Below, piece after piece: positions 21,649 to 43,456 of a DNA stretch of 48,126 nucleotides (its first letter is position 1; the number at the start of each line of letters is the position of its first letter). Location: positions 1 through 48,126 of the forward strand of contig JBKHHU010000003.1 in assembly GCA_046539045.1 (NCBI GenBank). The letters are read 5' to 3'. Below the pieces are notes generated by a model. That model was not told the origin of the DNA. It was given only the letters and a program-made list of their open reading frames with translations, and ran no database searches. The position numbers were made by a program, and so were the translations under genes. The stretch comes from Phycisphaerae bacterium (lineage in GTDB: Bacteria; Planctomycetota; Phycisphaerae; SM23-33).

Positions 21649-23088
21649 TTACTCGGATGCTCGCAGGTCCAGGCAGATGAGCGTATCGACGTCGCGGCAG
21701 ATCAATCGGCCGTCGACCAGCGCCATCGGAGCAAAAGCGTCATGCCCGTGGAGGACTTTTGCTTTGGCCATTTCGCGGTAACCACTGGTGCTCGCCTCGA
21801 CCAGGCGCAGTTCGCCCCGGTCACCGAGAACAATGATCATCCCGTCGGCGATGATGAACGGGCCGAGACCGAACCGGGCCGACCGGCCGGATGCCCAGAC
21901 TCTCGATCCATCGTCCGGGTTCAGGCAGACCAGTTGCTCGCTCATTCTGCCGATTTGCTTGGGCAGTATGCCGAACAGGTGCTCCTGGTAGTAGATCGGC
22001 GTCTGCTGTTCGGTACCGAAGCCTCTGGGCGGACGCGTCCGCCAAAGCACCTCGTGACTGATTTTTTCTCCGTCCCAGCTGAGCTTGAACATCGCCGCGC
22101 CGGTTCCGTACCCGGCAGAGAACATGATCCGGTTGTCGTCGAGGATTGCGGGGCTGGGTGCACTGGCGGTTTTGTAGTCCCAGTCGGATGTCTGCCAGAG
22201 CAGCTTGCCCGCGTCGGCAAGCTCTGCGGATACCGCCGCCACCCCGCCGGTAAAGACGCAGGTGTAGATCTTCTTACCGTCGATCGTGGTCGGCATGATC
22301 GACGAATGGGTCATCGCCCAACGCTTCTGGTTGGGCGTCTTCCAGGTGATCTCGCCGGTTTTGAGGTCGAAGCCCGCGTACAGGATATCGGTTCCGCCGA
22401 TGGCGATTACCGCGGTGCCGTTTTCAATGATCGGCCCCTGCCCGGCGTACCATTCGGGGACGATCGCCCCGAACTCCTTGACCAAGTCCTTTTGCCAATA
22501 GACGTTCCCGGTCACCGGATCCATGCAGGTCAGGTGCAGTTTGGGCCCCAGCGCGACCAGGTACTTGTCTGTCACGGCAGGGACAATTCGACTCATGCCG
22601 TGGTAATCCCGGATGTCGACCGGATAGGAGAAGCTCCAGATGTCCTCGCCGTCGGTCAGGGAGAAACAGCGGATGACGTCCCGCTTCTCGGAGGCATCGT
22701 AATCATGCAGGTATGCCCTTCCGTTCCAGACGGCCACCCCGGCGTGCCCGAGACCGACCTCTTTTTCCCAGACCACGGGAGGCTTCCCGCCTTCCCACTT
22801 CCGGGCCAGCGGTGTCTGTTGGGTGACAGTATTATCCCTTCCGGGCCCCATGAACTGCGGCCAATTGGCGGTGATCTCTTCCGACGGCTCGCCGCTTCCT
22901 GCCGTCAGGATGGGCTTGCCCTCGATATTGCCGGCTGTGCCGACATCGGTGAGGGCTTTTTCCATTCCGGGAACACGCACTTCCACGTCCAGGCGGGGGT
23001 CTGCTGAGCGGACGTACTGGATGCCCAGCACGCCGGCGATCAGGATCCCGGTAACCAAAACTATTCCGATTGCAACGCGCATGGGCAC
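21649..23088 (-). CDS. Exported PQQ-like beta-propeller protein
   Basis: N-terminal TM/signal helix, NWPQFMGPGRDN, GxxxW blades and C-terminal GRLICRD..LICLDL. Confidence 0.87.
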   Translation of the reverse strand: MPMRVAIGIVLVTGILIAGVLGIQYVRSADPRLDVEVRVPGMEKALTDVGTAGNIEGKPILTAGSGEPSEEITANWPQFMGPGRDNTVTQQTPLARKWEGGKPPVVWEKEVGLGHAGVAVWNGRAYLHDYDASEKRDVIRCFSLTDGEDIWSFSYPVDIRDYHGMSRIVPAVTDKYLVALGPKLHLTCMDPVTGNVYWQKDLVKEFGAIVPEWYAGQGPIIENGTAVIAIGGTDILYAGFDLKTGEITWKTPNQKRWAMTHSSIMPTTIDGKKIYTCVFTGGVAAVSAELADAGKLLWQTSDWDYKTASAPSPAILDDNRIMFSAGYGTGAAMFKLSWDGEKISHEVLWRTRPPRGFGTEQQTPIYYQEHLFGILPKQIGRMSEQLVCLNPDDGSRVWASGRSARFGLGPFIIADGMIIVLGDRGELRLVEASTSGYREMAKAKVLHGHDAFAPMALVDGRLICRDVDTLICLDLRASE

Positions 23089-23169: not shown

Positions 23170-26100
23170 TCACTCATTCCGCAATGCTCCCAGCAACGAG
23201 CCGCGAACCGCGAGCCCGGATGCCAAAAGTGTCCAGACTATACCAGAAACGAAAATACCCACAAGAGTCAGTGTCAGCGAGACGTAAGGCATACCGGCAT
23301 CCGGTGACCGCAACGCAGGCAGAACCGCAATAATCGCCGAAATTACGCCGATCACCAGCCCGAGCAGCAGGAGCAACCAATGCTCGGCCAGCACCATCCA
23401 CACCAGTCGAAGCCTGGCGAAACCGACCGCCCGCAGGAGCGCCAGCTCGTCGCGACGTTCCAGGACGTTCCGCAGCACCACAAGTGCCAGACCAATGCTC
23501 CCGAGGACCATCCCCAGACCACCGAGAATCTGGAAGATGCTCAGATAGGTGTTCTCGACCTGCTTGAAGTCCTTCAGCCGCTGGACGGTCGGAGTCCATT
23601 CCGCGGCGACCGGCTCCATCGCCTGGGTCAGGTTCGCCCGAACCTGGTCCACCTTCTCCGGCGGAGTGTCCATCAGCAGGAGGCTGTATCCGGCCTGGGA
23701 GGGGAAACGCCGCTGGAAATCGGCTTCCGAGATGATCAGGCTGCCCTGCAGGACGGAACTTCCGATAATGCCGACGATTTCCACCTGGAAATCCTCTCCA
23801 TTCTCGCCGGTGTAGGTCATCCGGTCGCCGATGCCTTTGCCCAGTCCCCACTGCAGCGTCGGAGCGTCTCCGATGGCGGGGACGACACCTTCTTCGAGCT
23901 GACGGTCGAGCACCAACCATGGATCGTCTGGCGGCGCCTCATCGGATACTTTGACGAATTCGAAAGCGTCCCGCCGAGCCATCGCCTGCGGATCGCCCCC
24001 AAGCAGGCGGGGCCGCTGGGCGCGGTTCAGGTTCAGGCAACTGGCATCATCGCCGGGCTGGACCCGCAGATATACCGCGTCGAGATTCTCGACATCCTCC
24101 TGCTTGAGCAGGAACTGCCGGCGGCCTTTCTCGGAGGACAGCTTGTGATAGATCGGCAGGGACAGCTCGCCGTAGAGCTGGAATCCGCCGGTCGGAGAGT
24201 TCCGCTGGTTGGAGTTGCGCGACGGACTCGGCCTGTTGGCGCCGACGGTGACAATCAGAAAGCTTCCGCACGCCAGCAACGCGATGGTCGCCAGGCTTCT
24301 GCCCCGGCGGCGGGATGAGTTACGCAGCCCCACCTCGGCCACGCTCAGCCGGCCGGTGCTGGCCCGTCGGGAGAGCGTCGTCAGCAGCGTCCCAGAGAGC
24401 ATCAACCCGCCGACCAGCAGCATGGAACCGGCACCAAAGAAGGTTCCGGCAGCGCCCGTGCCTCGACCGGCCTCGGTCATGGCCACCAGCACGATCGCCC
24501 CGGCGATCAATGCCAAACCGCCCCAGAGCCCCCAGCGCCTGCCGCCGCGAGGCTTTCCGAGCCTCAATTCGCGGTCCGAACCGGACTGGAGCAATTCGGT
24601 GGCTGAGGCCTTCGTCTGCCTGCGGATGGTCAACCAGATCGCGAGGCTCGCCACGGCAGTGCCCGCCAGCACACCGATCACGACAGTGCCCGGGTCCAGG
24701 TGGAATTCAAGCGGAGTATCGGCGATCGCCCCGGACCAGACTCCTCGCAGCGCCCCCAGAACCAGCATGGTGTATACGATCCCGCCGACGACGCCCAGCA
24801 CGCTGCCGGCCAGTGACAGGACAGCCCCCTCCGCCAGCAGCAACCGTCGTACACGCCGGGGCGGGAAACCGATCGCCAGCAGCGTGCCGATTTCTCCGGA
24901 CCGCTGCTCCACACCGAACACGAACAGCAATGCCGTCAGCAGCACCGCCGCGATGATCAGGAAGAAACTCAGCGAGACAAAGAGCACGCGGAAATCCAAT
25001 GCCTCGCTCGTGGCGTCCAAGGCCAGTTGCCGCACCGGCTGGAATACCAGCCCGTAATCCTGAGGATCCAGCGACCGGCGCACGCTCTCAGCCACCTGCT
25101 GCTCGGTTCGCCCGGCCTTGCTGACGCGGATCGCGGTCAGATTCCCGAAGCGGTTGGCCCACAACTGTCGGGCCTTCTCGAGCGTCACGAAGCCCTTGCT
25201 CGTCCCGCCGTAGGTGATCCAGTAGGTATTCAGGTCCTCGCGTTGCTGCTCGGGCAGCGCGTTGATGTCGATGTCGATTCCCGGATCCCATTCATCGCAG
25301 CTCTGTTTGCCGTACAGGCCCGGGAATTTCGGGAGCAGCGCCGGGTCCACGGCCGCACCTTCCAGCGGCACGATCTCGCTGACCTGCAGCTCGGCGGACT
25401 CTTCCACCAGTTCCCGCGACGGTCCGAAGTCGTAGTACTCCACCGTCAGCGAGTCACCCGGTTTCGCGCCGAGGCGCTTGGCCGTCCAATCGTTCAGCAC
25501 GATCCCATCGGTCGGCATATCGTCCGGAACAAGGGTCTCCACGGGCGGCAGATCCCCGGCTGGGCTGGTTTGACTTTGCGGGGAAAGCCTGCCCACTCCG
25601 CTGACCGTCGCGTAAGGAACGGTCTTCTCGCCGACGATCATCCGGTTTACGAAATACGTAAACACACCGGTCGTCGTCGGCTCGACGCCTGCAATCGACC
25701 GTCCCAACTCAGGATCCAGAAACACCCGGTCGCTGCGGATTTCCACAACGTTTCTGCCCTCCAGCGGCCGGTACTCCAGCTCCAGATCGGCGAGTCGGAA
25801 GTTCTTTTTCAATGACGAGCGGAGCGTTTCCCGGCTGGGGGAGCCTTCTTTGTCGGCTCCGATGAGCAGCAGATTGGCCTTGCCGGGCTTTTCGAGTAAC
25901 GTCTGCAGCGTTTCGCGTCGCAGGAATATGTTGCTTGGTGGGATCTGGTTGGCCCGCATGCTGAACTTGCCGTACTGTTCGTCACCGACCACCGCGAACA
26001 CAACCGCACTGCGGCTGAGCGTGTGGCTGTCTGCCTTGCTGAGGGGCGCATCGCGCGAAATGTCGCTGATTCTCTGCAGACGAATGCGGACGGTGTCGCC

Positions 26101-26544
26101 CTTGCTCACGCCCAGCCGGTTCGCGAGCCTCTGATTGATCGCGATCTGGATGTTCTGCGTGTCGTCAGGCGCTGCGGCAAGGGGATCCTCTGCGCCCCCA
26201 AGCTTCCAGAACCCGCTGCCGACACCATTGATCTGCACTTGGTTGACGCGTGCTTCATCGGTCCCGACCGATCCCTGGACCTGCAACATCGCTTCGACCA
26301 TGGGCAGGTCTTCGGCCATGTCGTCGGCCAATTCCGTCCGGAAGAAACGGTTCATCGCGGGCAACGCATACTGAACCCTGCCGAGCCGGTCACGCGCGAT
26401 GTTGTTGAGCGTGTAATGTACTGAATCGCCCACCGTCAGGGCGCCCACGAGCACCGTGGATGCGACAACGGCCCCGAGCAGCACGCCCAGGTTCGTCCGC
26501 CAGTAATGTTTCAGGCTCTTGCCGATGAGCTTGAGACTGTTCAT
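23170..26544 (-). CDS. Double-length MacB/FtsX-type (type VII) ABC transporter permease
   Basis: Two FtsX-like halves (EQRSGEIGTLLAIGF and ERRDELALLRAVGF), each after a large periplasmic domain. 1124 aa. Confidence 0.92.
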   Translation of the reverse strand: MNSLKLIGKSLKHYWRTNLGVLLGAVVASTVLVGALTVGDSVHYTLNNIARDRLGRVQYALPAMNRFFRTELADDMAEDLPMVEAMLQVQGSVGTDEARVNQVQINGVGSGFWKLGGAEDPLAAAPDDTQNIQIAINQRLANRLGVSKGDTVRIRLQRISDISRDAPLSKADSHTLSRSAVVFAVVGDEQYGKFSMRANQIPPSNIFLRRETLQTLLEKPGKANLLLIGADKEGSPSRETLRSSLKKNFRLADLELEYRPLEGRNVVEIRSDRVFLDPELGRSIAGVEPTTTGVFTYFVNRMIVGEKTVPYATVSGVGRLSPQSQTSPAGDLPPVETLVPDDMPTDGIVLNDWTAKRLGAKPGDSLTVEYYDFGPSRELVEESAELQVSEIVPLEGAAVDPALLPKFPGLYGKQSCDEWDPGIDIDINALPEQQREDLNTYWITYGGTSKGFVTLEKARQLWANRFGNLTAIRVSKAGRTEQQVAESVRRSLDPQDYGLVFQPVRQLALDATSEALDFRVLFVSLSFFLIIAAVLLTALLFVFGVEQRSGEIGTLLAIGFPPRRVRRLLLAEGAVLSLAGSVLGVVGGIVYTMLVLGALRGVWSGAIADTPLEFHLDPGTVVIGVLAGTAVASLAIWLTIRRQTKASATELLQSGSDRELRLGKPRGGRRWGLWGGLALIAGAIVLVAMTEAGRGTGAAGTFFGAGSMLLVGGLMLSGTLLTTLSRRASTGRLSVAEVGLRNSSRRRGRSLATIALLACGSFLIVTVGANRPSPSRNSNQRNSPTGGFQLYGELSLPIYHKLSSEKGRRQFLLKQEDVENLDAVYLRVQPGDDASCLNLNRAQRPRLLGGDPQAMARRDAFEFVKVSDEAPPDDPWLVLDRQLEEGVVPAIGDAPTLQWGLGKGIGDRMTYTGENGEDFQVEIVGIIGSSVLQGSLIISEADFQRRFPSQAGYSLLLMDTPPEKVDQVRANLTQAMEPVAAEWTPTVQRLKDFKQVENTYLSIFQILGGLGMVLGSIGLALVVLRNVLERRDELALLRAVGFARLRLVWMVLAEHWLLLLLGLVIGVISAIIAVLPALRSPDAGMPYVSLTLTLVGIFVSGIVWTLLASGLAVRGSLLGALRNE

Positions 26545-27242
26545 GCCGAAGCACCTGCTTCCACGAGTTGTCCGTCACGAAGATGGGCGATTGAGCCCAT
26601 TTTCTCCGCAAGGTCTGTTGCGTGTGTAACCATCACGACCGTTACGCCTTCCTCTTCATTCAACTCGCTGAGTAACCCGACCAGTTCCGCAGCTCGTGAG
26701 TGGTCGAGTGAACCGGTCGGCTCGTCGGCCAGCAGCAGCTTTGGCCGGTTGATCAGCGCTCGCACTACGGCGACTCGCTGGCGTTCCCCGCCGGAGAGCT
26801 GCCCCGGCCGGTGCGACAGCCGCTCGGACAGCCCCACGCGGTCCAGAAGACGCTTTGCCCGGTCTTCGGGCTGCTCGGCCGTGTCGGCGGTCGGGCCGGC
26901 CAGTGTCGGCACCAAAACGTTCTCCAGCAGCGTGCACTGGGGCAGCAGGTGGTGCAACTGGAAGATGAACCCGATGCTGTTGCGGCGGACTTCCGCGGTC
27001 TCCTTGTCGTCCAGGCTCGTGATGTCCCTGCCGTCCAGCAGCACCTTTCCCTCGTTGGGCTTGTCCAGCGTGCCGATGATGTTCAACAACGTGGTCTTGC
27101 CGGATCCGCTCGGGCCGACGATCGACAGCGTCTGCCCCTGCTCCAGCGAGAGAGAGACCCCACTGAGTACCTCCGGTCCGGGGCTGCCGCCGGGAGATTC
27201 ATACCGCCGCGTTACATTCTGCACTTCCAGTAGGTTGCTCAT
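26541..27242 (-). CDS. ABC transporter ATP-binding protein (LolD/MacB type)
   Basis: GPSGSGKTT, IGFIFQ, LSGGERQRVA, LLADEPTG and MVTH. Confidence 0.96.
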   Translation of the reverse strand: MSNLLEVQNVTRRYESPGGSPGPEVLSGVSLSLEQGQTLSIVGPSGSGKTTLLNIIGTLDKPNEGKVLLDGRDITSLDDKETAEVRRNSIGFIFQLHHLLPQCTLLENVLVPTLAGPTADTAEQPEDRAKRLLDRVGLSERLSHRPGQLSGGERQRVAVVRALINRPKLLLADEPTGSLDHSRAAELVGLLSELNEEEGVTVVMVTHATDLAEKMGSIAHLRDGQLVEAGASA

Positions 27243-28617: not shown

Positions 28618-30084
28618 TTAATTCGGGCGGAATGCGTACAAATAGCCGTCCATCGCTCCGACGTAGATGTTTCCGTCCACCACAGCCGGGCTTGACGCAC
28701 TGTCGCCGATCTCGTACGACCAGATCTTCTTCCCGTCCTTAAGGCTCAGCACGTACAGGTTTCCGTCTCCGGCGCCCACAACGACCTTGTCATGGCAGAT
28801 CACCGGCGTGGAGCCGATCTTGTCACGCGTGGGAAAACTCCAGAGCTTTTTGCCGTCCTTGCGCGACAGGCAGTAGACGCTGTAATCGTCATTGCCGACC
28901 ACCACGTGATCCTTTCCGACCGCACCTGCCTGGAAATATTCGCCGTCCGCGTCGAAGAAGTCCCATAGCAACTCGCCGGTTTTCAGGTCCACGGCGCTGA
29001 AGGTCATCTCATACGTGCCGATGTAGGCCACTCCATCAGCCACAGCCGGGGCACCGGGGACGTAGGAATCCAGCAGAACGCCTTCCAATTCCTTCCCGTC
29101 CTCGATCTGCACCAGGTGCAGCATGGCGTCGCAACCGCCGAAGATGATCTTGCCGTCATGCACGGCAGAACCTTGATTGATCCGGTCGTCCGCTTCGACG
29201 CTCCAGACCTTCTTGCCGGTCTCCCCGTCCAGCGCGTAGACCTTATGGTCATAGCTGCTGAGGAAGACCCGCACCTTGTCGGTCGGCGTGGGGGCCGCGT
29301 TGACGGCGCCCTTCATGTCGCCGCCGATCTCGGCAGGATGCAGCCGAGCTTCGCCGGTTCCGGCATCCACGATACGGGTCATGTTCTCCGGAACAGCGAT
29401 GAACTCGCTCCCGCCGGGAGCATGTTGCGTTTTGGGCGATTTTGCGTTTTTCTCAGCCGACGTCTCAGCCGACGTCAATTTCCCGGTCTGACGGTCCAGC
29501 ACGTACGTCTTGCCGCGCATCCGCCGCGGATAATGCGTCCACTTTGGCTTGCCTGTGTCCGGATCGACGGCCATGACCCGCGTGTCGGAGGAGGCGACAT
29601 ATAGCATGCCTTCGTACAGACATGGCGTGCCCAGGATGGCGTCGCCGACGACCAGTTCCCATGCCTTCTTCCCGGTCTGGCGGTCGATCGCGTAGAGTTT
29701 GCCGTCATCGGCACCGGCATAGACGCGCTTGGCATCGACCACAGGGAACGACACCACCGCCCCGCCGGTTTTGAACTTCCACGCTACCGCGAAGTTGGTA
29801 CCAAGTCTGCCCTCGGCCAGGCCGCGGAAGCTGTGGGAACCACCAAAGCAGGGCCAACTGCCCTGCGAGGTGGTGATCGGTTGCACTACGGGTTGGGTTT
29901 CGGGAGACGCGGTCTGCGTCTGCGATGCCGGATCGCTTCCATCCCGTTCGGAATGATCGTCCTGCTGCGACTGCCAGTGGAAATACAGCACTCCGGTGAC
30001 AGCACCGATCAGGACCACGATGGTTAATATGGACACAGCAATTTTCATGAGCTTCAGATCAACTCGCAGAAACTTTGGTAACAT
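28618..30084 (-). CDS. Membrane-anchored PQQ-like (BamB-fold) beta-propeller protein
   Basis: N-terminal TM helix, WPCFGGS, and repeats such as VYAGADDGKLYAIDRQTGKKAW and YVGAMDGYLYAF. Start may be ATG about 12 codons downstream. Confidence 0.87.
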   Translation of the reverse strand: MLPKFLRVDLKLMKIAVSILTIVVLIGAVTGVLYFHWQSQQDDHSERDGSDPASQTQTASPETQPVVQPITTSQGSWPCFGGSHSFRGLAEGRLGTNFAVAWKFKTGGAVVSFPVVDAKRVYAGADDGKLYAIDRQTGKKAWELVVGDAILGTPCLYEGMLYVASSDTRVMAVDPDTGKPKWTHYPRRMRGKTYVLDRQTGKLTSAETSAEKNAKSPKTQHAPGGSEFIAVPENMTRIVDAGTGEARLHPAEIGGDMKGAVNAAPTPTDKVRVFLSSYDHKVYALDGETGKKVWSVEADDRINQGSAVHDGKIIFGGCDAMLHLVQIEDGKELEGVLLDSYVPGAPAVADGVAYIGTYEMTFSAVDLKTGELLWDFFDADGEYFQAGAVGKDHVVVGNDDYSVYCLSRKDGKKLWSFPTRDKIGSTPVICHDKVVVGAGDGNLYVLSLKDGKKIWSYEIGDSASSPAVVDGNIYVGAMDGYLYAFRPN

Positions 30085-30186: not shown

Positions 30187-31068
30187 TTACTCGGTCAGCA
30201 GGCCGAGCCCGAGCAGCCCGTAGAACGTGAACTCGCAATCGACTTCTCGTTCGCCGCGGTACCCGCGGAAGGCGCCCCGGCCGGTCCACAGTTCATCCAT
30301 GAAATCCAGGCAGGGCTCGCGGAACGACTCCAGCGATCGCCGGGCCAGCGACAACGCCTGCAGCGTCACGGCCGTGGAGAGCAGGTCCGGCATGGGCGCA
30401 TCCGGGATCGCCAGAAATCCTCCGGACTCGCAGAACCGCTTCTCCAGCCAGTTCAGCGTTTCCGGGCGGACCTGTCTGTCGAACTGGTGATGGACGACAA
30501 CCGCGGCGGCGGTGTTGGGCGTTGTGGGCACGGGGAACTCCGCCGAGTTGGTGTAGGCGCCGTCCGGCGTGGCGAGACCCTCAAGGCGATCGAACAGCGC
30601 GTCGACGTCGGCAACGGGCATTGCGGTATCTTCACAGACGCCGACGGCGAAAAAGCTGGCGTAAGCGCTGCTGTGAAGCTGGTTGGGCTCTTCGGCGTAC
30701 CCACCGTCCTCGGCGCGGAACCGGTCGAGTTGTCGGTGGATCCGCTGAGCCGCTTCCGTACCGGCCAGTCCTTCCGGAAGGGCCGCCAGTGCCCGCGCCA
30801 GGCAGCCGAGATGGACCAGATCAAGCGTCGCCGGATCGAACCCATTCAGATACTCGCGCACGCCGCTGGGGATCGGTGCTTCGAGGGACGCAAGCGACTG
30901 CAGCGCAAAGGCCGAGTAATACAGATCCGAATGCGCCGCCCTTCCGCGAAAGCCTCCGTCTTCGCACTGAAGCGACAGGAGGAAATCGGCCACCAGATCG
31001 GCAGACTCACGCAGCGGAATCCGAGCCCGACCGGCTGCCGCCCTCATTTGTCGCGTCATGTTCTTCAC
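30187..31068 (-). CDS. Prenyltransferase/squalene-oxidase-repeat (alpha/alpha)6 barrel protein
   Basis: QW-like repeats LQCEDGGF, FRAEDGGY, ATPDGAY, FCESGGF and TGRGAF, each followed by a DLYYS/DLLST/DCEFT-type helix. Only 293 aa, with no DxDD motif. Confidence 0.85.
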   Translation of the reverse strand: MKNMTRQMRAAAGRARIPLRESADLVADFLLSLQCEDGGFRGRAAHSDLYYSAFALQSLASLEAPIPSGVREYLNGFDPATLDLVHLGCLARALAALPEGLAGTEAAQRIHRQLDRFRAEDGGYAEEPNQLHSSAYASFFAVGVCEDTAMPVADVDALFDRLEGLATPDGAYTNSAEFPVPTTPNTAAAVVVHHQFDRQVRPETLNWLEKRFCESGGFLAIPDAPMPDLLSTAVTLQALSLARRSLESFREPCLDFMDELWTGRGAFRGYRGEREVDCEFTFYGLLGLGLLTE

Positions 31069-32710
31069 AGCAGGTGAAACCCTCGGCCTCTCTGAATACC
31101 TTGGCGATCATCTTCCGCAGCAGGCCCTTAAGCGAAAGATTGTCCAGTCGACACAGGGCGCGGATCGCCTCTGCCTTGTAGCCTTCCAGCAGCGACTCGG
31201 TCACCGCTCGAACCCGCAGGTCTTTGAAGATCGCCGTCCAGCGCGCCGGGTCGGTATCGAAGCGCTCCCCGCCGCACCACAGTTCCTCAATGAGCTTCCT
31301 GTCTTCACCGTCGGCCCGTTCCCACGCAACAGCCAGCACCACGCTGGGGCGATTGGCCATCACGTCCGACGGATCTTCGCTGCCGTAGAAGTCCTGCAGG
31401 TCATCGCGGACCTGGTAGGCGATGCCCAGCGCTTCGCTGTAGTGACTCAGCACATCGCGGACCGCATCCGGAGCGTCGGCAAGAATGGCTCCGAGTTGCA
31501 GCGCGACCTCGAATGCCGGAGCGGTCTTTCCGCGGAAGATTTCCAGCACATCGGCAACGTGCAGCGGCTGACGCTGGCGCGCCCAACAGAGTTCGGCACC
31601 TTGTCCGATGCAGAGTTGGCGGTGCCCATCGGCGGCAACTTGCATCATGTCCGCTCGCTTCGCCGCGGGCAGGCCGGTCTCGGCCAGCAGACGGTATCCG
31701 TCGCCCAGCAGCAGGTCGCCGATGTTGATCGCCACGGCCTGCCCGTGCTCGACGTGGAGGGTTTTCTCTCCATAGCGAGTGTCGTCGCCGTCTTCGATGT
31801 CGTCGTGAACCAGCGAGGCCTTGTGGAAACATTCCACACCCAGCGCCACCCGCCGCAGATCCTGCTGGTCCAGTTCGTCACCAGCCAGCGCGCGGGCCGT
31901 GCAGACCGTCAGCACCGGGCGCCACCGCTTGCCCGCGCGGGCCATCCAGTCCACCGCGATCTTGCCGGTCTTGCCGCTGACCGGCCCCAGCAGTTGCTCC
32001 ATCGCATCGCGATCGAACCAGCGGATCACCTCCCGCCGGATCGATTCGATATCAAGCATGGAACTGCCCTCTTCGCGAGTCAACTGAATGGCCTCCCACA
32101 GCCAGTCCAGATCACACATCGTTTCGTGACATCCGTCGTACAGCAGCGGAATCGCAATGCCCGGAACGGCTGCTGCCTCCATGTATTTATACACGCTTTC
32201 GAGCGAATCCAGGCAGCTTACTCCGATTACCGCCTGCACTTTCCCGCTGGCGATCAGGCTGGTGACCACCGGCGAGCCCTCCGCCACCAGCACCACGTAA
32301 CCCAACCGCTCCGCTTCCGACTTGGCTGCACCGATCATGCACTGGCCGCATTCGCGACAGAGCAGCCCGAGTTCATCGAACCCGGCCGGGCAGGTGGATT
32401 TTCGCAGGCACTGCGGGAGTAACAGCAACCGGCGGTCGCAGGGGATTCCGCCAAGGCTGTCCCGCCAGGTCTCGTTATTGATCAGGACCGCCAACCAGTC
32501 GCGGGAATCAGCCGCGAGGGCCTCGCTTTCGATCAAGCGATCGGATTCCTTCCGCAACTCTTCCAGGCTTAACGGAGGTACAAGCTTGTGCCGACGTACG
32601 TACTCGCTCACCAGGCGCAGCATGCGGTCGCGCTGTGGTTTGTGGGCGGGAACGCCCTTCATTGGCGGCCTGCACGTGAACTTCATTTGCTTCGATAACG
32701 AATCAGCCAT
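31007..32710 (-). CDS. Trans-isoprenyl diphosphate (polyprenyl) synthetase with N-terminal DUF116-like Cys-rich domain
   Basis: GKRWRP, FARM FHKASLVHDDIED, AINIGD, GQGAEL, KTAPAF and SARM YQVRDDLQD. N-terminal RRLLLLPQCLR..CPA..CRECGQC..GVSC. Start MADSLSK after a GAGGA RBS. Confidence 0.9.
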   Translation of the reverse strand: MADSLSKQMKFTCRPPMKGVPAHKPQRDRMLRLVSEYVRRHKLVPPLSLEELRKESDRLIESEALAADSRDWLAVLINNETWRDSLGGIPCDRRLLLLPQCLRKSTCPAGFDELGLLCRECGQCMIGAAKSEAERLGYVVLVAEGSPVVTSLIASGKVQAVIGVSCLDSLESVYKYMEAAAVPGIAIPLLYDGCHETMCDLDWLWEAIQLTREEGSSMLDIESIRREVIRWFDRDAMEQLLGPVSGKTGKIAVDWMARAGKRWRPVLTVCTARALAGDELDQQDLRRVALGVECFHKASLVHDDIEDGDDTRYGEKTLHVEHGQAVAINIGDLLLGDGYRLLAETGLPAAKRADMMQVAADGHRQLCIGQGAELCWARQRQPLHVADVLEIFRGKTAPAFEVALQLGAILADAPDAVRDVLSHYSEALGIAYQVRDDLQDFYGSEDPSDVMANRPSVVLAVAWERADGEDRKLIEELWCGGERFDTDPARWTAIFKDLRVRAVTESLLEGYKAEAIRALCRLDNLSLKGLLRKMIAKVFREAEGFTCCEEHDATNEGGSRSGSDSAA

Positions 32711-34301
32711 GGGAGTTCCTCTCGGCCTCCGCCGCCAGTGCCACGGCAGCGCGGTCACAACATTGTTGCGTCGTGCGGCGAATTCTCCGTCGCTCGCGGC
32801 GAAAATTTCTGCGCCACCCGGCGACTTCGGTTTTGCCCAGCGTCTGGATCAGGTTGCGTTTGAACCAGGCGACGCCCCCGGCCCGCTGGTTGTCGTAGTA
32901 GAGCTTCGGCGCGCGGCGGAAGTTCATCTCGTAGCACCGTTCGTACAGGTCAAGATGATCTTCCCGCATGCGGGACAGGTCGAAACGGGCGTGTCGACGG
33001 TCCTGTCGGTACGGCTCGTGGAAGACCGGGAACACCACCGCGCCCATCCTGTCAAATTCGTCCACGAGCGTCTGCGTCGCGGCGACGTCGGCTGGGGTTT
33101 CCCCTTCCAGCCCCAGCACCAGGCTGAAGACCGGGAAGAAACCCGTTTCGGTGAGTTTCCAGCCGGCTTCGGTGACCGCCTCGGCCCAGCAATCCGGGTC
33201 CAGCCTGCCGAGCTTACCCGGACCGATGGATTTCACCAGCCGTCCGGAGGCGCTCTCGACGCCCAGGTTAACCCAGAGATAATCAGTCCGTGCCGACCAG
33301 GTCAGCAGGCGGCGAATTTCGGCCAGCTGTTCCTTCGAGTACTGCAGCACGGAGGTTACGTTGGCGTGGTCGATCTGCATGAACCGCAGTTGGCCGACCT
33401 CCCGCATCCGCGTCAGCAGGTCTCGTAAGGCCTCGAAGTTGACCTTCGCTCCGGTCGCGCCGTAGCGGAAGAAGTCTTCGCTGGAATTGACAACCGAGCG
33501 AGATCCTGCGCGGTAGTTGGCCTCCAGATCGCTCAGCACGACATCGGCCGGGACGTGCTGCATCGGTCGGTCACTCATCGTGCAGAACTCGCAGCCATAC
33601 CCGCAGCCGCGAGACAGCTCCAGCACGCCGAGCATGGCCCCGCCGCGGATCGGGCGTAGCCTCTCAATGGCGGTTCCCTTCTCCGCTATATGATCGGCCA
33701 CCGGCTTGCCCGCCAGGATGTCCTCAATCAGTTGCGGGCCCTGGTTCTCGAAATAGCCTTCGAAGATCGTGTCCACGCCGAGACGTCGGGCTTCATCGCG
33801 ATCGCCGGTGAATTGCCATGCCCCCGCCCCACCGACGATCACCTTGAAACCAAAGGTCTGCTTTGCGCCTTTCAGCATCAGCAGCGTTTCTTCGGTGAGT
33901 ACTTCCGTATAAAGCCTGCCGCTCCAGAAAGCGCTGGTGGTGGTGTTGCTCATTCCCCGGCCGAGCGGATCGGATGAACTGAACAAGACCGCCTCGGTCC
34001 GGGAGCTCAAAAGACCCGGTAGCGATTCGGGCGTGGCGACGACGACATCCTCCTCGGTCAGATCGGTCTCCGCCAGCAGACTGGCCTCGACGCGACGCAC
34101 GCCGATGGGCGCCTGGGACGCCCTGCCGTCCGGCGAAACGGGTACCGGTTTGCTCAGGAGGTGCTTCCAGGCGAACCGGGGAACCTTCGTCGTCTGCATC
34201 GAGGCGAAGATGCCCTCGAACAGGATCGAGTAATCACCCGCCAGCGTCCGGTCCGCAACCAGGATCACCCGGGGAGAAAGCTGCCGGCGGTCGGAACTCA
34301 A
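32703..34301 (-). CDS. Radical SAM protein with N-terminal B12-binding-like domain (archaeal-type family, resembles GDGT ring synthase Grs)
   Basis: ELSRGCGYGCEFC (CxxxCxxC), VILVADRTL, APIGVRRVEASL, DPLG, FKVIVGGAGAW, NLGVES and LGLEGETP. Start set at TTG 34301, overlapping the upstream TGA. Confidence 0.88.
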   Translation of the reverse strand: MSSDRRQLSPRVILVADRTLAGDYSILFEGIFASMQTTKVPRFAWKHLLSKPVPVSPDGRASQAPIGVRRVEASLLAETDLTEEDVVVATPESLPGLLSSRTEAVLFSSSDPLGRGMSNTTTSAFWSGRLYTEVLTEETLLMLKGAKQTFGFKVIVGGAGAWQFTGDRDEARRLGVDTIFEGYFENQGPQLIEDILAGKPVADHIAEKGTAIERLRPIRGGAMLGVLELSRGCGYGCEFCTMSDRPMQHVPADVVLSDLEANYRAGSRSVVNSSEDFFRYGATGAKVNFEALRDLLTRMREVGQLRFMQIDHANVTSVLQYSKEQLAEIRRLLTWSARTDYLWVNLGVESASGRLVKSIGPGKLGRLDPDCWAEAVTEAGWKLTETGFFPVFSLVLGLEGETPADVAATQTLVDEFDRMGAVVFPVFHEPYRQDRRHARFDLSRMREDHLDLYERCYEMNFRRAPKLYYDNQRAGGVAWFKRNLIQTLGKTEVAGWRRNFRRERRRIRRTTQQCCDRAAVALAAEAERNSHG

Positions 34302-35578
34302 GAGCAGCCCTTCCCGTCGCAAGCGCATCGGCCGCCGGTGGAAGGCTCGGCCGGCTCGTCATGGCACGCGCAATCTGGGCCGCAATCGCCAGCCGTCTCA
34401 TCCGAGTGACAGGCACAATCCGAACCGCAGTCGGTGGAGACGGAGTCTTCCGAAGCAGAATTCGAACAACCGCAGTCGGCAGCCCGGGGCGGCGGGGCCG
34501 CGACGGATTTCGCCCGTGCCTGCAGCTGCTCAGCAGAGACTGTCCGGAGCACCTCATCGGGGATATCCAGCGTCTCCTGCAGACTGTCGGCGGTGGAGCA
34601 ACCGCAGCCGGAGGCGAGGTCCTCCGCCGGGGCGAAACGCCGTCTGGCCCCGTCGCTTCGGTTCCGAAGTCTGGCATAGATGTCGCCGGAAGCGATCTCC
34701 TCGTCATCGACCTTGACTGCTTCGCCGGCCTGTTCGTCCGAACCGTTGATGGGTGCCTTGTCGTATTTCGGGAAAACGATCGCCGCCGTCGGGCACATGC
34801 GGGCACAGGCCGGGCAGTTGGTCTTGCACTTGTCCGGACTGGTGACGGTCACCTTCCCGTCCACGAGCGAGTAGACCCCGAACAGGCAGAAGCTCATGCA
34901 TTTCTTGCAGTCGATGCACCGGGAGCGATCCAGCACGGGGAACCAGGGGATCCACTCCGAATCGGCCTTCGCCTGGTGTTCTGCAGCGAACTGCAGCACC
35001 CGGCCGGCCACCTGCTCGGGCTCGATGGCGGCCGAGTTGATATCCAGCACGGCCTTGTCGCCGCATCCGATCTGCGGGCAGTCAATGCGAACCACCGCCC
35101 GCCCCGTCGGCTGGTAGTCGTCGTTGCCTTCTCCGAAGGCGGTCACTGCCACGCCCGCTTCCAGGAGAGCCTTGGCGATGTGGAACATTTCCGGGCTCGA
35201 TTCGCCCAGCAGCACCTCGACCGCTTCAGGACCGGCCGGGCTGACCGGGGCAGTCGATGCGTCCTGTTCGGCCAAGGCGCCGGTAATCCCGCAGTGGCAC
35301 ATCTCCCGCATATTCAACACGTTGCACTCGCCGAGATCCAGGCCCGGAAGGTTCCGCACCGCTCGGGCAAAGCATGCGATGACTGTCGAGCCTGCGGGAA
35401 CATCCCCCAGTACGAACGGACTCTTGGCGGCAGCCAGTCCGCACAGGTCCGGTACCGCGGTGAACGGGCGATTCATGCCGATCAGCCCCGCCAAAACGCC
35501 ATCGGCAGTCTCCTGATCGATCACGTCGGAATGCCGACAGAAGCACATGATAGTTCGATTCTCTGTTCGGTCCGGCAC
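34298..35578 (-). CDS. Multidomain ferredoxin-family protein with Cys/His-rich acidic tail
   Basis: N-terminal CFC..DLC..IAC domain. PWFPVLDRSRCIDCKKCMSFCLFGVY..CKTNCPACARMCP (2x4Fe-4S). Tail carries DCGxDCACH repeats. Confidence 0.85.
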   Translation of the reverse strand: MPDRTENRTIMCFCRHSDVIDQETADGVLAGLIGMNRPFTAVPDLCGLAAAKSPFVLGDVPAGSTVIACFARAVRNLPGLDLGECNVLNMREMCHCGITGALAEQDASTAPVSPAGPEAVEVLLGESSPEMFHIAKALLEAGVAVTAFGEGNDDYQPTGRAVVRIDCPQIGCGDKAVLDINSAAIEPEQVAGRVLQFAAEHQAKADSEWIPWFPVLDRSRCIDCKKCMSFCLFGVYSLVDGKVTVTSPDKCKTNCPACARMCPTAAIVFPKYDKAPINGSDEQAGEAVKVDDEEIASGDIYARLRNRSDGARRRFAPAEDLASGCGCSTADSLQETLDIPDEVLRTVSAEQLQARAKSVAAPPPRAADCGCSNSASEDSVSTDCGSDCACHSDETAGDCGPDCACHDEPAEPSTGGRCACDGKGCS

Positions 35579-36145: not shown

Positions 36146-37408
36146 TTATTTGCTGAGGTCCAGGCAGATCAACCGGCCTTCGTGCGTGCGGCAGTACAGT
36201 TTGCCGTGGGCGAGGACCGGTATTGTCCAGCACAGACCATCCAGCACCTTGGCTTTGGAGATCATCTTGAGGCCCTTCGGAGACGCCTCGGAAATCGCCA
36301 GATCGCCCTTCTGTCCCAGGATGATCAGTTTGCCGTCGGCGGCGATCAGCGACCCCTTGCCGTAGCCGCGCTGGGCCCACTGCTCCTCTCCGGTTTTGAA
36401 GTCGATGCACTGCAACCGATTGCCGTCCACGCCGTAGAGATACCCGTCGATCAGGATCGAAGTGTTCATGTGGTTGGACATGTGGTTCCGCTTGCGCCAG
36501 ACTTCCTTCGGCGCGGGGGTGACCTTTACCAGCGCTGAACCGTTCCTATACCCGCCGGCGACGAAAACGTACCCGTCGTGGTAGATCGGCATGACCGCGC
36601 TGACCCCGTACTTGATCTTCAGCGGGTACAGGCCGAATTCCTTGCCCGTCTTCGGATCGAGAATCAACACGCCGTCGCCCGGGAACGTGGCCAGGTATTC
36701 TTTTCCGTCCTGCGTGAACAGGTATGGGGAGGAATACGCAGCCGGGTGCTTCTTCGACTTCCAGATGACATCGCCGGTTTTCTTGTTCATCGCGACAATC
36801 ACGCCGAGGTCCCAGATGAGCATGTCGCCTTTGATCATCGGCGAACACGACCAGCCCCACTGGCCGGGGTTGTTAAAGTCATTGGCGTTCTTCGACCAGA
36901 CGACGTCTCCGGTATCCGCTTTGAGGCAGTACATATCGCCCTTGCGGCTCAAGGTGAACACGAGATTGCTTTCCGGGTCGACCGTCGGCGTCATACCGGG
37001 GCCCCCGTTGCGCCGGGCGGCGGAGGCCTTGTAGGTATGTTTCCAGATTTCCTTGCCGGTATCGGCGTTCAGGCACCAGACGATGTCCTGCCCGCCCTTG
37101 TTGCCCATCGTGTAAAGTCTGTCGCCGACGACCGAGAAGGAACTGAACCCATCGCCGAGTTCGGCAGACCAGATCTCCTTCGGTCCTTTGTCGGACCATT
37201 TGGTCGTCCAGTTGCTCTCGGACGTCTTGCCGGTCCTTTCCGGCCCGCGGTACTGCGGCCAGTCCTTTCCGGTATTGGCAGTGTTCTCACCGGGTTCGGT
37301 CTTTACAGTTTCCGTGCCCTGACAAGCCATCGTCACGACCAGAATCGCTACGAGACCGAAGAAGGGCCCCGCGCAACGAGCGGTTCGTATTCGGAACATG
37401 TTCAGCAT
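36146..37408 (-). CDS. Exported, probably lipoprotein, PQQ-like beta-propeller protein
   Basis: Signal ending VTMAC, DWPQYRGPERTG, GKEIW blades and C-terminal GKLYCR..LICLDL. Confidence 0.87.
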   Translation of the reverse strand: MLNMFRIRTARCAGPFFGLVAILVVTMACQGTETVKTEPGENTANTGKDWPQYRGPERTGKTSESNWTTKWSDKGPKEIWSAELGDGFSSFSVVGDRLYTMGNKGGQDIVWCLNADTGKEIWKHTYKASAARRNGGPGMTPTVDPESNLVFTLSRKGDMYCLKADTGDVVWSKNANDFNNPGQWGWSCSPMIKGDMLIWDLGVIVAMNKKTGDVIWKSKKHPAAYSSPYLFTQDGKEYLATFPGDGVLILDPKTGKEFGLYPLKIKYGVSAVMPIYHDGYVFVAGGYRNGSALVKVTPAPKEVWRKRNHMSNHMNTSILIDGYLYGVDGNRLQCIDFKTGEEQWAQRGYGKGSLIAADGKLIILGQKGDLAISEASPKGLKMISKAKVLDGLCWTIPVLAHGKLYCRTHEGRLICLDLSK

Positions 37409-38747: not shown

Positions 38748-38841
38748 GTCGAAAAAACTCCCTTTCCGGTACTACCTAAGTGTAGCGGCGACAATGGACG
38801 GTAACCAATCGCGGCCCCGCGGATCGTCGGCCGGGGCGGCC

Positions 38842-38869
38842 TTGCGGTTGCCTGCGCAGATGGTATAGT
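38842..38869 (+). promoter_or_regulatory. Putative promoter of the glycosylation trio
   Basis: TTGCGG-N16-TATAGT with a TG extension. Confidence 0.4.
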
Positions 38870-38939
38870 CGCACGAGGTGGATGCCTGACGGCAACGGGC
38901 GAGGCAGGCTCTACCGGAACTCATGGAAGAGTGTGGTGC

Positions 38940-40538
38940 ATGTCCGGAGAACGCAACGAGTTGAGATCGGTTCGATGGCCGGAGGTGTCTGCGCACAGTC
39001 CAGAGAAACGACGGGGATTGATCCTGCTTCCGTGCCTGTTGCTGACCGCGATCGCCGCAGGAATGATCTTCAGCAGCGAATCCCGCAACCCCAGCACGGA
39101 TGAAGCGATGTGGAGCTACATCGGCTGGAATTGGACAGAACACGGGGCCGCACCGTTTGTGGACAGTTTCGATCACAAACCGCCTTTCGTCTACGAGGTG
39201 TACGCGGTGTCCAACACGGTTTGCCCATGGGCGCCGGTCCATTGCGCCCGGTGGATCGGCATGGCCGCGATGCTGGCCGGGGCGTGGATCGTGTGTCTGC
39301 TCGTCTGGCGCTGGGCCGGTCGGTCCGCCGGGCTGGTTGCGATGCTGCTGTTCGGGCTGACGATGTCGCGCCACGTGGTGGACGGTGCCCACGCCTCTCA
39401 TACCGAGTCCTTCGGGGCGCTGCTGGCGGTGCTTGGCTTTTGGCTGGTCGACCGGATGCGGACGGCCCCTCTCGGCAGGCGAAGTTTGCTGATCGGTCTG
39501 GCGGGATTGGCCCTCGGGTTTGCGTCTCTTGGCGTGCGGCAGTCGGAACTGGCCACGGCAGCGGCGCTGCTGGTGTTCTACCTCCTGATGACGCGCAGAG
39601 AACCGGCCGGGCGGCGATTGCGCGAACTGGGCATTGCCGCCGGCGGTGTGCTCATAGCGGGGCTTCTCGTGATGATTCCGCTGTGGCTTTCGGGGGCGAC
39701 GCCAGGCAATTACATCCACGCATGCTGGTTGAGTATCGGGCACGTCAGCACGATACAGGCCACCGCCGCCGAGCGGATTCACGTGCTGAGCGGGTTCTGG
39801 CAGGAATCGTTCCTGGTGGTGCTGCTGATCGGGGCGCTTGCGTTCGTTTTCCTTCGGCGGCGTATCGCCGCACGCGGCGTGCCGGTGTGGGGTCTGCTGG
39901 TGTGGGCGGGGCTGGCGTTTGCCGCGGCCAACGTGTCGGGCAACAATTACGGGCATCAGCAGAAACAGGCGGTGCTGCCGCTGGCGATTTTGACAGCTCT
40001 GGCGATTGTGGAACTGGTTGGCTTGGCGCGCGCACCGAGAAAAGGCCCCGGGCGGGCCGAGCCGTGGCTGGTGGTCCTGACGCTGGTATTCGCCTTTCCC
40101 CTGCACGCCGTGACCGACAGCGGATACGGACAACCCGACCCTGCCGAGTTCCGGGCGGTGGCCAAGAAGGTGCGCGAACTTTCCTCCCCCGGCGAATACG
40201 TGTACGTGCACGGCTGGGGAGCCGAGCAGGTGCAGTTCCGGGCGAGGCGACAAAGCCCGACGCGTCATTTCAATGGATTCTTCCTGGCGATGCCCGGAGC
40301 GCATGAGCAGTTGCGGACGGATTTGACGGACGCCGGTCCTCGACTGATCGTCGCGCCCGCCCCGTCAGTCGGCCAGACCGGCCCCGGAAACCTGCCCGAA
40401 GCCCAGCAACTCGGCCCCTGGTTTGCGGATCTGCTGGAGAAGCGGTACCGGCCGGTCGAGGACATCGGCGGCTGGCGGATCTACGAGTACAAGACTTCTG
40501 TGGATGTCCCCTTTGCTGAGACGAGGCCGACGCCATGA
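38940..40538 (+). CDS. Multi-TM GT-C fold (ArnT/PMT-like) membrane glycosyltransferase
   Basis: First loop DEAMWSYIG..PFVDSFDHKPPFVY, about 11-12 TM helices and a periplasmic C-terminal domain. Confidence 0.8.
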   Translation: MSGERNELRSVRWPEVSAHSPEKRRGLILLPCLLLTAIAAGMIFSSESRNPSTDEAMWSYIGWNWTEHGAAPFVDSFDHKPPFVYEVYAVSNTVCPWAPVHCARWIGMAAMLAGAWIVCLLVWRWAGRSAGLVAMLLFGLTMSRHVVDGAHASHTESFGALLAVLGFWLVDRMRTAPLGRRSLLIGLAGLALGFASLGVRQSELATAAALLVFYLLMTRREPAGRRLRELGIAAGGVLIAGLLVMIPLWLSGATPGNYIHACWLSIGHVSTIQATAAERIHVLSGFWQESFLVVLLIGALAFVFLRRRIAARGVPVWGLLVWAGLAFAAANVSGNNYGHQQKQAVLPLAILTALAIVELVGLARAPRKGPGRAEPWLVVLTLVFAFPLHAVTDSGYGQPDPAEFRAVAKKVRELSSPGEYVYVHGWGAEQVQFRARRQSPTRHFNGFFLAMPGAHEQLRTDLTDAGPRLIVAPAPSVGQTGPGNLPEAQQLGPWFADLLEKRYRPVEDIGGWRIYEYKTSVDVPFAETRPTP

Positions 40539-43199: not shown

Positions 43200-43450
43200 T
43201 ATTCACCTGCCGACAAGAGGTTGTTAAGAACGTGTGGAAAGAAGTTTTTTTCGGAGGGTAACTTGGGAACCTCCAACAGCTTGAGCCGTGTGGATAAGTA
43301 TGCCACGCGTTTGGCGTTGACCGTTCCCGGCAACCGGCGATAAGCTATCCTCCGTCTTGAGGGAAGTAAGCCTGTGGAGGAAGTCAATTCAACAGGCTCA
43401 CAAGACGCAAGTGGGTAGTCTTGGGCAGCTTAATTTCAGTGGATTTGAGG
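43200..43450. promoter_or_regulatory. dnaA upstream region with DnaA box(es); autoregulatory site and possible oriC
   Basis: Perfect TGTGGATAA at 43289-43297. Two-mismatch boxes TGTGGAAAG (43233) and TGTGGAGGA (43373). Lower GC than the flanks. TTGACC-N18-TAAGCT at 43317-43346. Confidence 0.6.
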
Positions 43451-43456
43451 AAGAAC

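Follow-up and report, generated by a model that had tools for sequence, protein, structure and literature searches.

Two overlapping genes for a DUF116-fused polyprenyl diphosphate synthase and a single-toroid barrel lie at the conserved centre of a gene set found widely in bacteria

Two overlapping genes on the minus strand of a 48,126-nucleotide stretch of DNA from a Phycisphaerae bacterium (GenBank assembly GCA_046539045.1, contig JBKHHU010000003.1, positions 1 to 48,126; the whole stretch is called the window below) encode a trans-polyprenyl diphosphate synthase that carries an N-terminal DUF116 domain (the fusion) and a single α/α-toroid protein related to the β subunits of protein prenyltransferases (the barrel). 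Analysis of related loci and genomes showed the pair to be the conserved centre of a gene set widely distributed among bacteria, one that includes a squalene–hopene cyclase (SHC)-like protein and that is already in print in part, without characterization. This gene set probably makes a ring-containing isoprenoid lipid, rather than attaching lipids to proteins. A preliminary description of the same DNA had read the pair as a two-component machine that makes a prenyl chain and transfers it to an acceptor, possibly protein cysteines; it missed the SHC-like cyclase cassette, as well as the ferredoxin-like and radical S-adenosylmethionine (SAM) genes that lie directly upstream of the fusion, tightly packed and on the same strand (Table 1).

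The fusion is likely to start at the ATG at 32710 (Met17 of the open reading frame, ORF), which yields a 567-residue product, as in the protein database. The barrel has two possible starts: from the GTG at 31068 it comprises 293 residues and overlaps the fusion by 62 nt, whereas the gene call in the database begins at ATG 31059, for 290 residues and an overlap of 53 nt. No transmembrane (TM) segments were predicted in the fusion, barrel, radical SAM or ferredoxin-like proteins.

Table 1. Genes, domains and motifs of the locus (window positions).
Feature	Positions	Strand	Basis or remark
DUF116::trans-polyprenyl diphosphate synthase fusion	31007..32758	-	583-aa ORF; Pfam PF01976 + PF00348
DUF116 domain, residues 85-224, 7 invariant Cys	32087..32506	-	Pfam E 5.8e-34
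polyprenyl_synt domain, residues 272-494	31277..31945	-	Pfam E 3.6e-47
First aspartate-rich motif (FARM) DDIED, D319-D323	31790..31804	-	translation; Ala314/Ser315 and Phe311 just upstream, to 31828
Second aspartate-rich motif (SARM) DDLQD, D452-D456	31391..31405	-	translation; D452, D453, D456 invariant 22/22
Single α/α-toroid barrel, prenyltransferase-β-like	30187..31068	-	Pfam PF00432, E 1.5e-13
Out-of-frame overlap, synthase 3' end / barrel 5' end	31007..31059	-	53 nt
Radical SAM protein, 541 aa, CxxxCxxC at residue 242	32703..34328	-	distantly B12-binding type, TIGR04013-like
Ferredoxin-like protein, 426 aa, 2x[4Fe-4S]-type motif, Cys-rich C-terminal tail	34298..35578	-	

The fused synthase

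The C-terminal domain of the fusion scores 161.2 bits against PF00348 (gathering cut-off 27), and all of the best 120 relatives in the protein database contain both Pfam domains (49–56% identity). The FARM, SARM, GKRWRP, GQ..E and KT motifs are invariant in 22 of 22 sequences (alignment A1); the roles of the two aspartate-rich motifs and of the GKRxRP and KT motifs, which bind isopentenyl diphosphate, in trans-isoprenyl diphosphate synthases (trans-IDS) have been described (PMC13290415). The preliminary description had reported an intact FARM and SARM, a Cys-rich DUF116 domain and Ala/Ser at positions −5/−4 before the FARM, and all of this was borne out by the translation and by invariance in 22/22 sequences; the synthase has every canonical chain-elongation motif together with small residues at −5/−4.

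The nearest solved structure to the synthase domain is the Pyrococcus geranylgeranyl diphosphate (GGPP) synthase 1wy0 (E 1.4e-28). Comparison of the surroundings of the FARM (..ELIHNYSLVHDD.. in 1wy0 and ..ECFHKASLVHDD.. in the fusion) revealed that an aromatic residue at −5 in 1wy0 is replaced by Ala314 in the fusion, which also has Ser315 at −4 and an invariant Phe311 at −8. Mutagenesis of archaeal and bacterial synthases has established that residues upstream of the FARM set product length. By these chain-length rules, Ala314, Ser315 and Phe311 predict a product longer than C20, perhaps C25–C35. NCBIfam equivalog models all fell short of their cut-offs on the fusion, the best scoring 139 bits where 450 were required. 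In the full-length model (pLDDT 78.5) the synthase domain is confident, with values mostly of 85–97, and residues 558–583 form a disordered C-terminal tail. A conserved Cys-Cys or Trp-Cys is found in the synthase tail in the main clade (22/24 sequences) and is absent from a divergent subclade.

The assembly of the window genome (G000; 81% complete, 4.8% contamination) contains a single other PF00348 gene, which encodes an IspA-type farnesyl diphosphate (FPP) synthase (NF045485, 310 bits against a cut-off of 275). Three PF00348 genes are present in each of nine other fusion-bearing genomes (9/9), namely two stand-alone synthases and the fusion, and these nine include a 99%-complete genome from the class of G000 (G080). 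Where the FARM was read, in five of the nine, an IspA-type motif was found in 5/5 and a long-chain-type motif in 3/5; the second synthase was missed by the regular expression in the other two. The fusion is thus unlikely to be the quinone side-chain enzyme, because all nine relatives possess, apart from it, two stand-alone synthases, of which one is IspA-type wherever the FARM was read; the absence of a third synthase from G000 is most simply explained by incomplete assembly. The preliminary description had named a sole housekeeping quinone synthase, together with a barrel devoid of a prenyl-binding cavity, as the case that would overturn its reading; on the first count, two stand-alone synthases accompany the fusion in the relatives.

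The DUF116 domain

The DUF116 domain scores 117.2 bits against PF01976 (gathering cut-off 25). Its seven cysteines, arranged as C117-x5-C123, C134-x2-C137-x2-C140, C182 and C210, are all invariant in 22/22 sequences, and in 24/24 after two divergent members are added. The model consists of alternating strand–helix units from strand E110–114 to helix H217–224, which fits a flavodoxin-like fold, and this reading agrees with the fold predicted by Makarova et al. in 2015 (PMC5898192). The same authors predicted DUF116 to be metal-binding and proposed a role in electron transfer. The domain most likely holds an iron–sulfur or other metal centre.

A fusion of DUF116 with a polyprenyl synthetase (Psta_0175 of Pirellula) was already pointed out in PMC5898192. 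The archaeal DUF116 proteins (arCOG02078) belong to the same Pfam family and share a CxxCxxC-containing cysteine set, but they are described with two N-terminal TM helices (PMC5898192), whereas the fused bacterial form has none and instead begins with a confidently modelled three-helix extension (residues 40–103). The maximum 19-residue Kyte–Doolittle mean of the fusion (1.63) falls inside the α/β domain, and no N-terminal hydrophobic segment was found. An ESM Atlas search with the DUF116 part returned only DUF116 clusters. The link between DUF116 and isoprenoids is not limited to the fused form, since the genes for IspH, SHC, adenosyl-hopene transferase and polyprenyl synthetase in a terpenoid cluster of a cultured Bipolaricaulota strain are accompanied by an unfused DUF116 gene (bioRxiv 10.1101/2025.11.21.689855, Fig. 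S12 legend).

The barrel

The barrel matches PF00432 (Prenyltrans) with 51.3 bits (cut-off 26.5). Its AlphaFold2 model (pLDDT 95.8, pTM 0.92) is one complete α/α toroid, with which the Atlas model (pTM 0.93) agrees; the "half-size" of the preliminary description therefore applies only relative to the two-domain SHC, the barrel itself being a full single toroid. A Foldseek search of the PDB returned the single-domain class II cyclases 8paj/8pak (E 2.7e-8), the β subunit of Rab geranylgeranyltransferase (RabGGTase) and the cyclase MstE with similar scores. VIA-align analysis of this list separated them: RabGGTase/GGTase-III β subunits gave Z 26.6–26.0 (rmsd about 2.6 over about 264 residues, 17–18% identity), the top match being 4ehm_B (Z 26.6, rmsd 2.6, 264 residues aligned), followed by GGTase-I β (Z 25.4) and farnesyltransferase (FTase) β (about 24). 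In a wide VIA-align search that did not depend on Foldseek, GGTase-I β (25.4) stood above 8paj (20.9), drimenyl diphosphate synthase (19.8), SHC (19.4), MstE (18.7) and generic (α/α)6 sugar enzymes (about 18). The order was similar for a profile of 25 barrels searched against PDB sequences, with E values of 5.3e-12 for RabGGTase β, 1.2e-8 for FTase β, 2.4e-8 for drimenyl diphosphate synthase and 1.2e-4 for SHC. A single-sequence PDB search with the barrel returned nothing significant (best E 0.61), and the C-terminal 120 residues alone gave nothing useful. The barrel is thus nearer to prenyltransferase β than to SHC, as first proposed (Z 26.6/25.4 versus 19.4), and with RabGGTase, GGTase-I and FTase β it has in common a single (α/α)6 toroid with Gly-Gly-Phe loops (Z 26.6–21.8, 14–18% identity).

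Also as proposed, the barrel lacks the DxDD motif of class II cyclases, and the matching stretch reads P-D-L-L-S-T-A. Conserved instead are an invariant D274-x-E276 and D225-L-L-S. Among 30 diverse barrels (down to 26% identity), the invariant positions comprise the Gly-Gly-Phe loops, D45, Y47, Y48, F51, Y133, D225-x-L-x-T and D274-x-E276-(Y)-x-x-Y280, with Y277 present in 29/30. According to the secondary structure of the model, all of the invariant residues are located where the six core helices begin, which we take, from what is known of FTase, to be the mouth of the funnel. Several repeats contain the aspartates, which may cap helices; outside the repeat pattern, the sole invariant acidic residue is Glu276. 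A profile–profile alignment of the barrel with the SHC-like cyclase was weak (probability 34%) and did not settle which repeat matches the DxDD repeat.

The zinc site of the protein prenyltransferases was not found. In FTase β, the Asp, Cys and His zinc ligands are presumably those of the motifs VDGCYSFW and DFYHT. In a hidden Markov model (HMM) alignment these two motifs fall on lDcEytyY and DLYYt of the barrel, with no Cys or His at the motif positions; the alternative structural register, P-D-L-L-S-T-A, contains neither residue, and no Cys or His is invariant across the 30 diverse barrels. The PPTA repeat of the α subunit (PF01239) had no match in the 81%-complete G000. Prenylation of protein cysteines is therefore unlikely, both for want of Cys or His at the zinc-site positions and because no α-subunit repeat was found in this incomplete assembly. 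In contrast to protein prenyltransferase β subunits, moreover, the barrel has a prenyl diphosphate synthase as its partner gene, and a class II cyclase accompanies the pair.

Conservation of the locus and co-occurrence with a cyclase

A pattern scan with alignment A1, covering one genome per species, returned at least 599 matching stretches, and about 9,500 are estimated for the whole collection; a locus scan with the single fusion protein as query returned nothing. A relative of the fusion is encoded by 595 of the 599 listed stretches, and the best 80 loci were analysed for linkage. By deposited label, which was counted by hand and can be wrong for metagenome-assembled genomes (MAGs), these 80 loci belong to Verrucomicrobiota (31), Planctomycetota (24), Acidobacteriota (5), Lentisphaerota (5), Bacteroidota (5) and other or unnamed groups (10).

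Downstream sequence of at least 1 kb is available for 68 loci; the barrel is the next gene after the fusion in 46 of these, is in an odd position in 3 and is lacking from 19. Its predicted start falls inside the synthase gene in 22 of the 46, of which 12 share the −53 nt offset of the window; three more loci with short contig ends have the same offset. A ~620-residue SHC-like protein follows the barrel in related loci. A ferredoxin-like gene shares the locus in 52/80 and is then nearly always upstream. The radical SAM gene of the window type occurs in 10/80 loci, in the same place and with 50–56% identity between orthologs, and most other loci have a ~400-residue SPASM/NirJ-like radical SAM gene there. 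A quick tree of 77 fusion sequences groups the loci with the B12-type radical SAM, including the window, close to where the main clade begins; this distribution requires 3 label changes, and none of 500 shuffles needed as few.

The commoner form of the cassette (loci L039, L053 and others) has a CobW-like GTPase gene upstream and, in some cases, a DndA/NifS-like cysteine desulfurase gene downstream, neither of which is present in the window. These genes hint at dedicated delivery of a metal cluster or of sulfur.

Co-occurrence was cross-tabulated by hand for another 150 genomes from this phylum, none less than 90% complete, with thresholds of E <= 1e-100 for the fusion, E <= 1e-60 for the SHC-like cyclase and E <= 1e-40 for the barrel, for which a laxer search at E <= 1e-8 was also made. 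Related genomes are not independent, and the counts describe this sample, with no statistical test attached. The fusion is present in 33/150 genomes and the SHC-like cyclase in 32/150, with both in 31; the cyclase occurs without the fusion in a single genome (G103). At E <= 1e-40 the barrel was found in 25/150 genomes, 24 of them with the fusion. The remaining nine fusion genomes, for which this threshold gave no barrel, are all members of the divergent fusion subclade. In the two of these nine that were examined, a PF00432 toroid lies right after the fusion, and the search at E <= 1e-8 located a barrel beside the fusion in 7/9. The idea that the barrel is dispensable in the divergent subclade was therefore rejected, since a more divergent barrel is present there that had been missed at 1e-40. 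Fusion, barrel and cyclase occur together in 31 of the 33 fusion genomes. Of five genomes in which the fusion is not followed by a barrel, four have a strong barrel ortholog elsewhere. Pairwise distances are correlated between fusion and barrel (0.88), fusion and SHC-like cyclase (0.87) and fusion and ferredoxin-like protein (0.71), which shows co-inheritance, not contact.

Across the sampled genomes, the toroid thus accompanies the cyclase as consistently as the fused synthase does. Because of this constancy, the minimal set of genes to consider is fusion, toroid and cyclase, to which the ferredoxin-like and radical SAM genes are then added.

The cyclase in this genome

No SHC-like gene is present in the window. 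A 629-residue SHC-like ortholog, 50% identical to the cyclase of the L039 cassette and containing both SHC Pfam domains, is encoded on another contig of G000 (C279). Its DxDD acid motif is intact (VPDSDDTPGAL). Directly upstream of this cyclase gene lies a second B12-binding radical SAM gene (L090, C279:7581-9173, minus strand; 530 residues), which is BchE/HpnJ/HpnR-like below cut-offs and has no counterpart in the 80 related loci. The fusion and the cyclase are also on different contigs in three other genomes (G016, G085 and G086).

Proposed pathway and alternatives

The explanation that we favour overall, with a probability of roughly 0.55 for the proposal including its mechanism, is that the synthase and the toroid are members of a terpenoid cassette built around an SHC-like cyclase. 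That the pair belongs to such a cassette is, taken by itself, very probable. In the proposed mechanism, the C-terminal domain of the fusion would be a canonical trans-isoprenyl diphosphate synthase reserved for this pathway, alongside the FPP synthase of general metabolism and, in relatives, another stand-alone enzyme as well. It would elongate an allylic primer with isopentenyl diphosphate (IPP) to a chain longer than C20, putatively C25–C35. The soluble flavodoxin-like DUF116 domain, with its seven cysteines and likely metal centre, would work with the ferredoxin-like protein and the radical SAM enzyme. The barrel, as a zinc-free relative of prenyltransferase β, could bind the polyprenyl chain in its aromatic funnel and present it for radical SAM tailoring and for cyclization by the DxDD-containing SHC-like cyclase (here, that of C279); it would probably not prenylate protein cysteines. 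The end product would be a cyclic isoprenoid that is not derived from squalene. The part given to the barrel is tentative: chain binding and hand-over is the most likely of several options for the barrel, at a little over one chance in three. The two-component machine of the preliminary description survives in so far as the pair is a unit, as seen from adjacency, the 53-nt overlap, co-occurrence and correlated divergence; transfer to protein cysteines found no support.

Several observations weigh against this proposal. McShea et al. (bioRxiv 10.1101/2024.10.28.620730) state that the function and structure of the SHC-like clade are undetermined and that its members have not been studied by experiment. 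The cyclase is not adjacent to the pair in this genome, where the link is an ortholog on another contig of a MAG with 4.8% contamination. Two genomes (G038 and G098) carry a full-length fusion, and neither a barrel nor an SHC-like cyclase was found in them with the queries used; the fusion may have a second context there. The Cys-bearing loop of DUF116 was modelled at low confidence (pLDDT 56–61), which is unsurprising because the model contains no metal. The chain length is a prediction from general mutagenesis rules. Given the invariant Glu276 and the ring of aspartates in its funnel, the barrel could be a catalyst and not a passive binder. As weaker evidence, longer, naturally fused forms of the barrel were not found at E <= 1e-20.

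A bolder form of the proposal would make the barrel a zinc-free, α-subunit-free homolog of prenyltransferase β that acts in a complex with an iron–sulfur synthase and performs or gates new chemistry on a C25–C35 chain, giving, with the radical SAM enzymes and the SHC-like cyclase, polycyclic terpenoids independent of oxygen and of squalene. We regard this form as improbable, at about one chance in seven.

Equally doubtful is a barrel that acts as a true zinc-free prenyltransferase onto a small-molecule or peptide acceptor, yielding a meroterpenoid for the SHC-like enzyme to cyclize in the manner of MstE and Lon15, whose substrates are prenylated aromatics. Both fold and profile place the barrel closest to prenyltransferase β subunits, its invariant E276 is aligned by HMM with the Cys of VDGCYSFW in FTase β, and the SHC-like clade is sister to epoxy-polyprenyl (meroterpenoid) cyclases (bioRxiv 10.1101/2024.10.28.620730). 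Polyprenyl synthase (PPS)-like prenyltransferases also occur with single-toroid cyclases in pathways for ribosomally synthesized and post-translationally modified peptides (RiPPs), as in ChrPC (PMC13290415). However, no conserved acceptor-making gene, whether for an aromatic head group or for a precursor peptide, was found in the loci examined, and the invariant residues include neither zinc ligands nor an obvious basic cluster for diphosphate binding. In addition, the SARM is repurposed in trans-IDS-like peptide prenyltransferases (PMC13290415) but intact here.

The barrel could alternatively be a cryptic single-domain class II-type cyclase or protonase in which D274-x-E276 replaces DxDD, acting before or with the SHC-like enzyme, for example at the other end of the chain; we put this at about one chance in ten. 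It would account for the top Foldseek matches (8paj/8pak at E 2.7e-8, and MstE; VIA-align Z 20.9 for 8paj) and for the conservation of D274, E276, Y277 (29/30) and Y280 in 30 diverse sequences, and MstE does function with a variant DxD motif (bioRxiv 10.1101/2024.10.28.620730). Against it, the stretch of the barrel in the DxDD context reads MPDLLSTA, compared with VPDSDDTPGAL in the cyclase, prenyltransferase β subunits stand above the cyclases by about 4.5 to 7 Z units, the aspartates at helix starts in every repeat may be structural caps, and the profile–profile match to the SHC-like cyclase is the weak one (34%) given above.

A bacterial counterpart of FTase/GGTase that prenylates protein cysteines, as the preliminary description had suggested, is very unlikely. 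The closest barrel structures are indeed those of RabGGTase, GGTase-I and FTase β, and the disordered tail of the main-clade synthases has its conserved Cys-Cys or Trp-Cys (22/24), but neither register of the barrel has Cys or His at the zinc-site positions, no PPTA repeat was found in the 81%-complete G000, the pair goes almost one-to-one with a DxDD cyclase that would be superfluous for protein lipidation, and the divergent subclade lacks the Cys tail yet has a barrel. Least credible of all is a mere housekeeping role for the fusion, as the long-chain synthase that supplies menaquinone with its side chain, next to an unrelated barrel; this would fit the two PF00348 genes of G000 (FPP synthase and fusion only, in an 81%-complete genome) but not the two stand-alone synthases found besides the fusion in 9/9 other genomes, of long-chain type in 3/5 read, nor the patchy occurrence of the fusion (33/150 genomes of the phylum), which tracks the cyclase.

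Neighbouring genes

The radical SAM protein scores 26.8 bits against Pfam Radical_SAM and E 3.2e-19 against NCBIfam TIGR04013, both under the cut-offs, and the ferredoxin-like protein matches Fer4 families at E about 3e-5, likewise under the cut-offs. The C-terminal ~110 residues of the latter (34298-34630, minus strand) are dense in CxC pairs (CGC, DCGC, DCGSDCAC, DCGPDCAC, CAC and GCS) and look like a metal-binding or metallochaperone tail; homologs at other loci are ~300 residues long and may be without it.

Downstream of the barrel lie genes for a membrane-anchored PQQ/BamB-like β-propeller, a GT4 glycosyltransferase, an ABC ATPase and a 1124-residue FtsX/MacB-type permease. The last two span 23170-27242 (minus strand), downstream of the operon, and an ABC ATPase and a MacB-like permease directly follow the barrel in one related locus (L112 in genome G020, 1-1898). 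They may form an export system for the product, one that is not conserved in most loci. Four PQQ/BamB-like β-propeller paralogs are found within 22 kb, all on the minus strand (28618-30084, 36146-37408, 21649-23088 and 16426-18306); two of them flank the operon, and the one after the barrel has the N-terminal membrane anchor.

Further away, a 796-residue fusion protein (14039-16429, minus strand) combines a thioredoxin-like [2Fe-2S] ferredoxin, a Nuo51 FMN-binding domain, a NuoF Fe-S domain and 2x[4Fe-4S] in a HydB/NuoEF-like arrangement and is adjoined by a 460-residue polyferredoxin. A 510-residue ORF at 38772-40304 (minus strand) has no Pfam match. The window contains a dnaA gene (43421-44875, plus strand), and the cumulative GC skew has its minimum near 36-38 kb and rises thereafter; because of these two features, the window may lie close to a replication origin. 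Among public sequencing runs, no RNA run is listed for the window; there are four DNA rows from one study, one of which covers most of it.

Relation to known systems and significance

The SHC-like group was defined by Santana-Molina et al. in 2020 (PMC7306690), who reported that planctomycetal members keep the catalytic residues and, in the supplement, that a polyprenyl synthase is usually found near the SHC-like cyclase; because of this neighbour, the substrate of the cyclase may be something different from squalene. The system described here shares with the published SHC-like cyclases its taxa (the Planctomycetes–Verrucomicrobia–Chlamydiae (PVC) group, Acidobacteriota and others) and a cyclase family with an intact DxDD; among the carriers, McShea et al. 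name Gemmata obscuriglobus. It differs from the published setting in that the cyclase of this genome is on another contig, beside a second B12-type radical SAM gene. Neither the toroid protein nor a radical SAM protein is mentioned in the searched passages and supplement of PMC7306690 and of McShea et al. A characterization of the cassette was not found in the literature searched, whose coverage excluded subscription journals.

A precedent for a regular polyprenyl synthase that feeds an SHC-family cyclase and bypasses squalene is the sesquarterpene pathway of Bacillus (HepS/HepT, YtpB and SqhC; PMC7306690). The logic is alike, with a dedicated polyprenyl synthase and an SHC-family cyclase, but the present cassette lacks a YtpB-type enzyme, has other accessories (toroid, DUF116, ferredoxin-like and radical SAM proteins) and uses a cyclase of another clade. 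The ChrPC RiPP maturases (PMC13290415) likewise pair a domain of the prenyl synthase fold with a single toroid. In ChrPC, ComQ and PalQ, however, the SARM is repurposed for peptide recognition, whereas the SARM and the IPP-binding motifs are intact in the fusion; furthermore, no precursor peptide was seen here, and a full two-domain cyclase is also present.

The association of the cyclase with a polyprenyl synthase and the fusion of the latter with DUF116 are therefore already in print. New here are the barrel as a constant third member of the cassette, the recurrence of the 53-nt overlap across loci, the placement of the barrel nearest to prenyltransferase β by both fold and profile in spite of its missing zinc site, and the split of the cassette in the window genome.

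Work on lipid biomarkers and on terpenoid evolution has posed the question of what SHC-like cyclases act on and what they make (bioRxiv 10.1101/2024.10.28.620730), which this analysis narrows and does not answer. As the bacterial protein closest in fold to the eukaryotic prenyltransferase β subunits, and one without their zinc site, the toroid offers a test case for the origin of that enzyme family. Should the bolder form of the proposal, with a complex and new chemistry, prove true, the cassette would represent a new class of lipids and biomarkers in PVC bacteria and Acidobacteriota, and the toroid would be a prokaryotic model for the origin of the β subunits of eukaryotic protein prenyltransferases.

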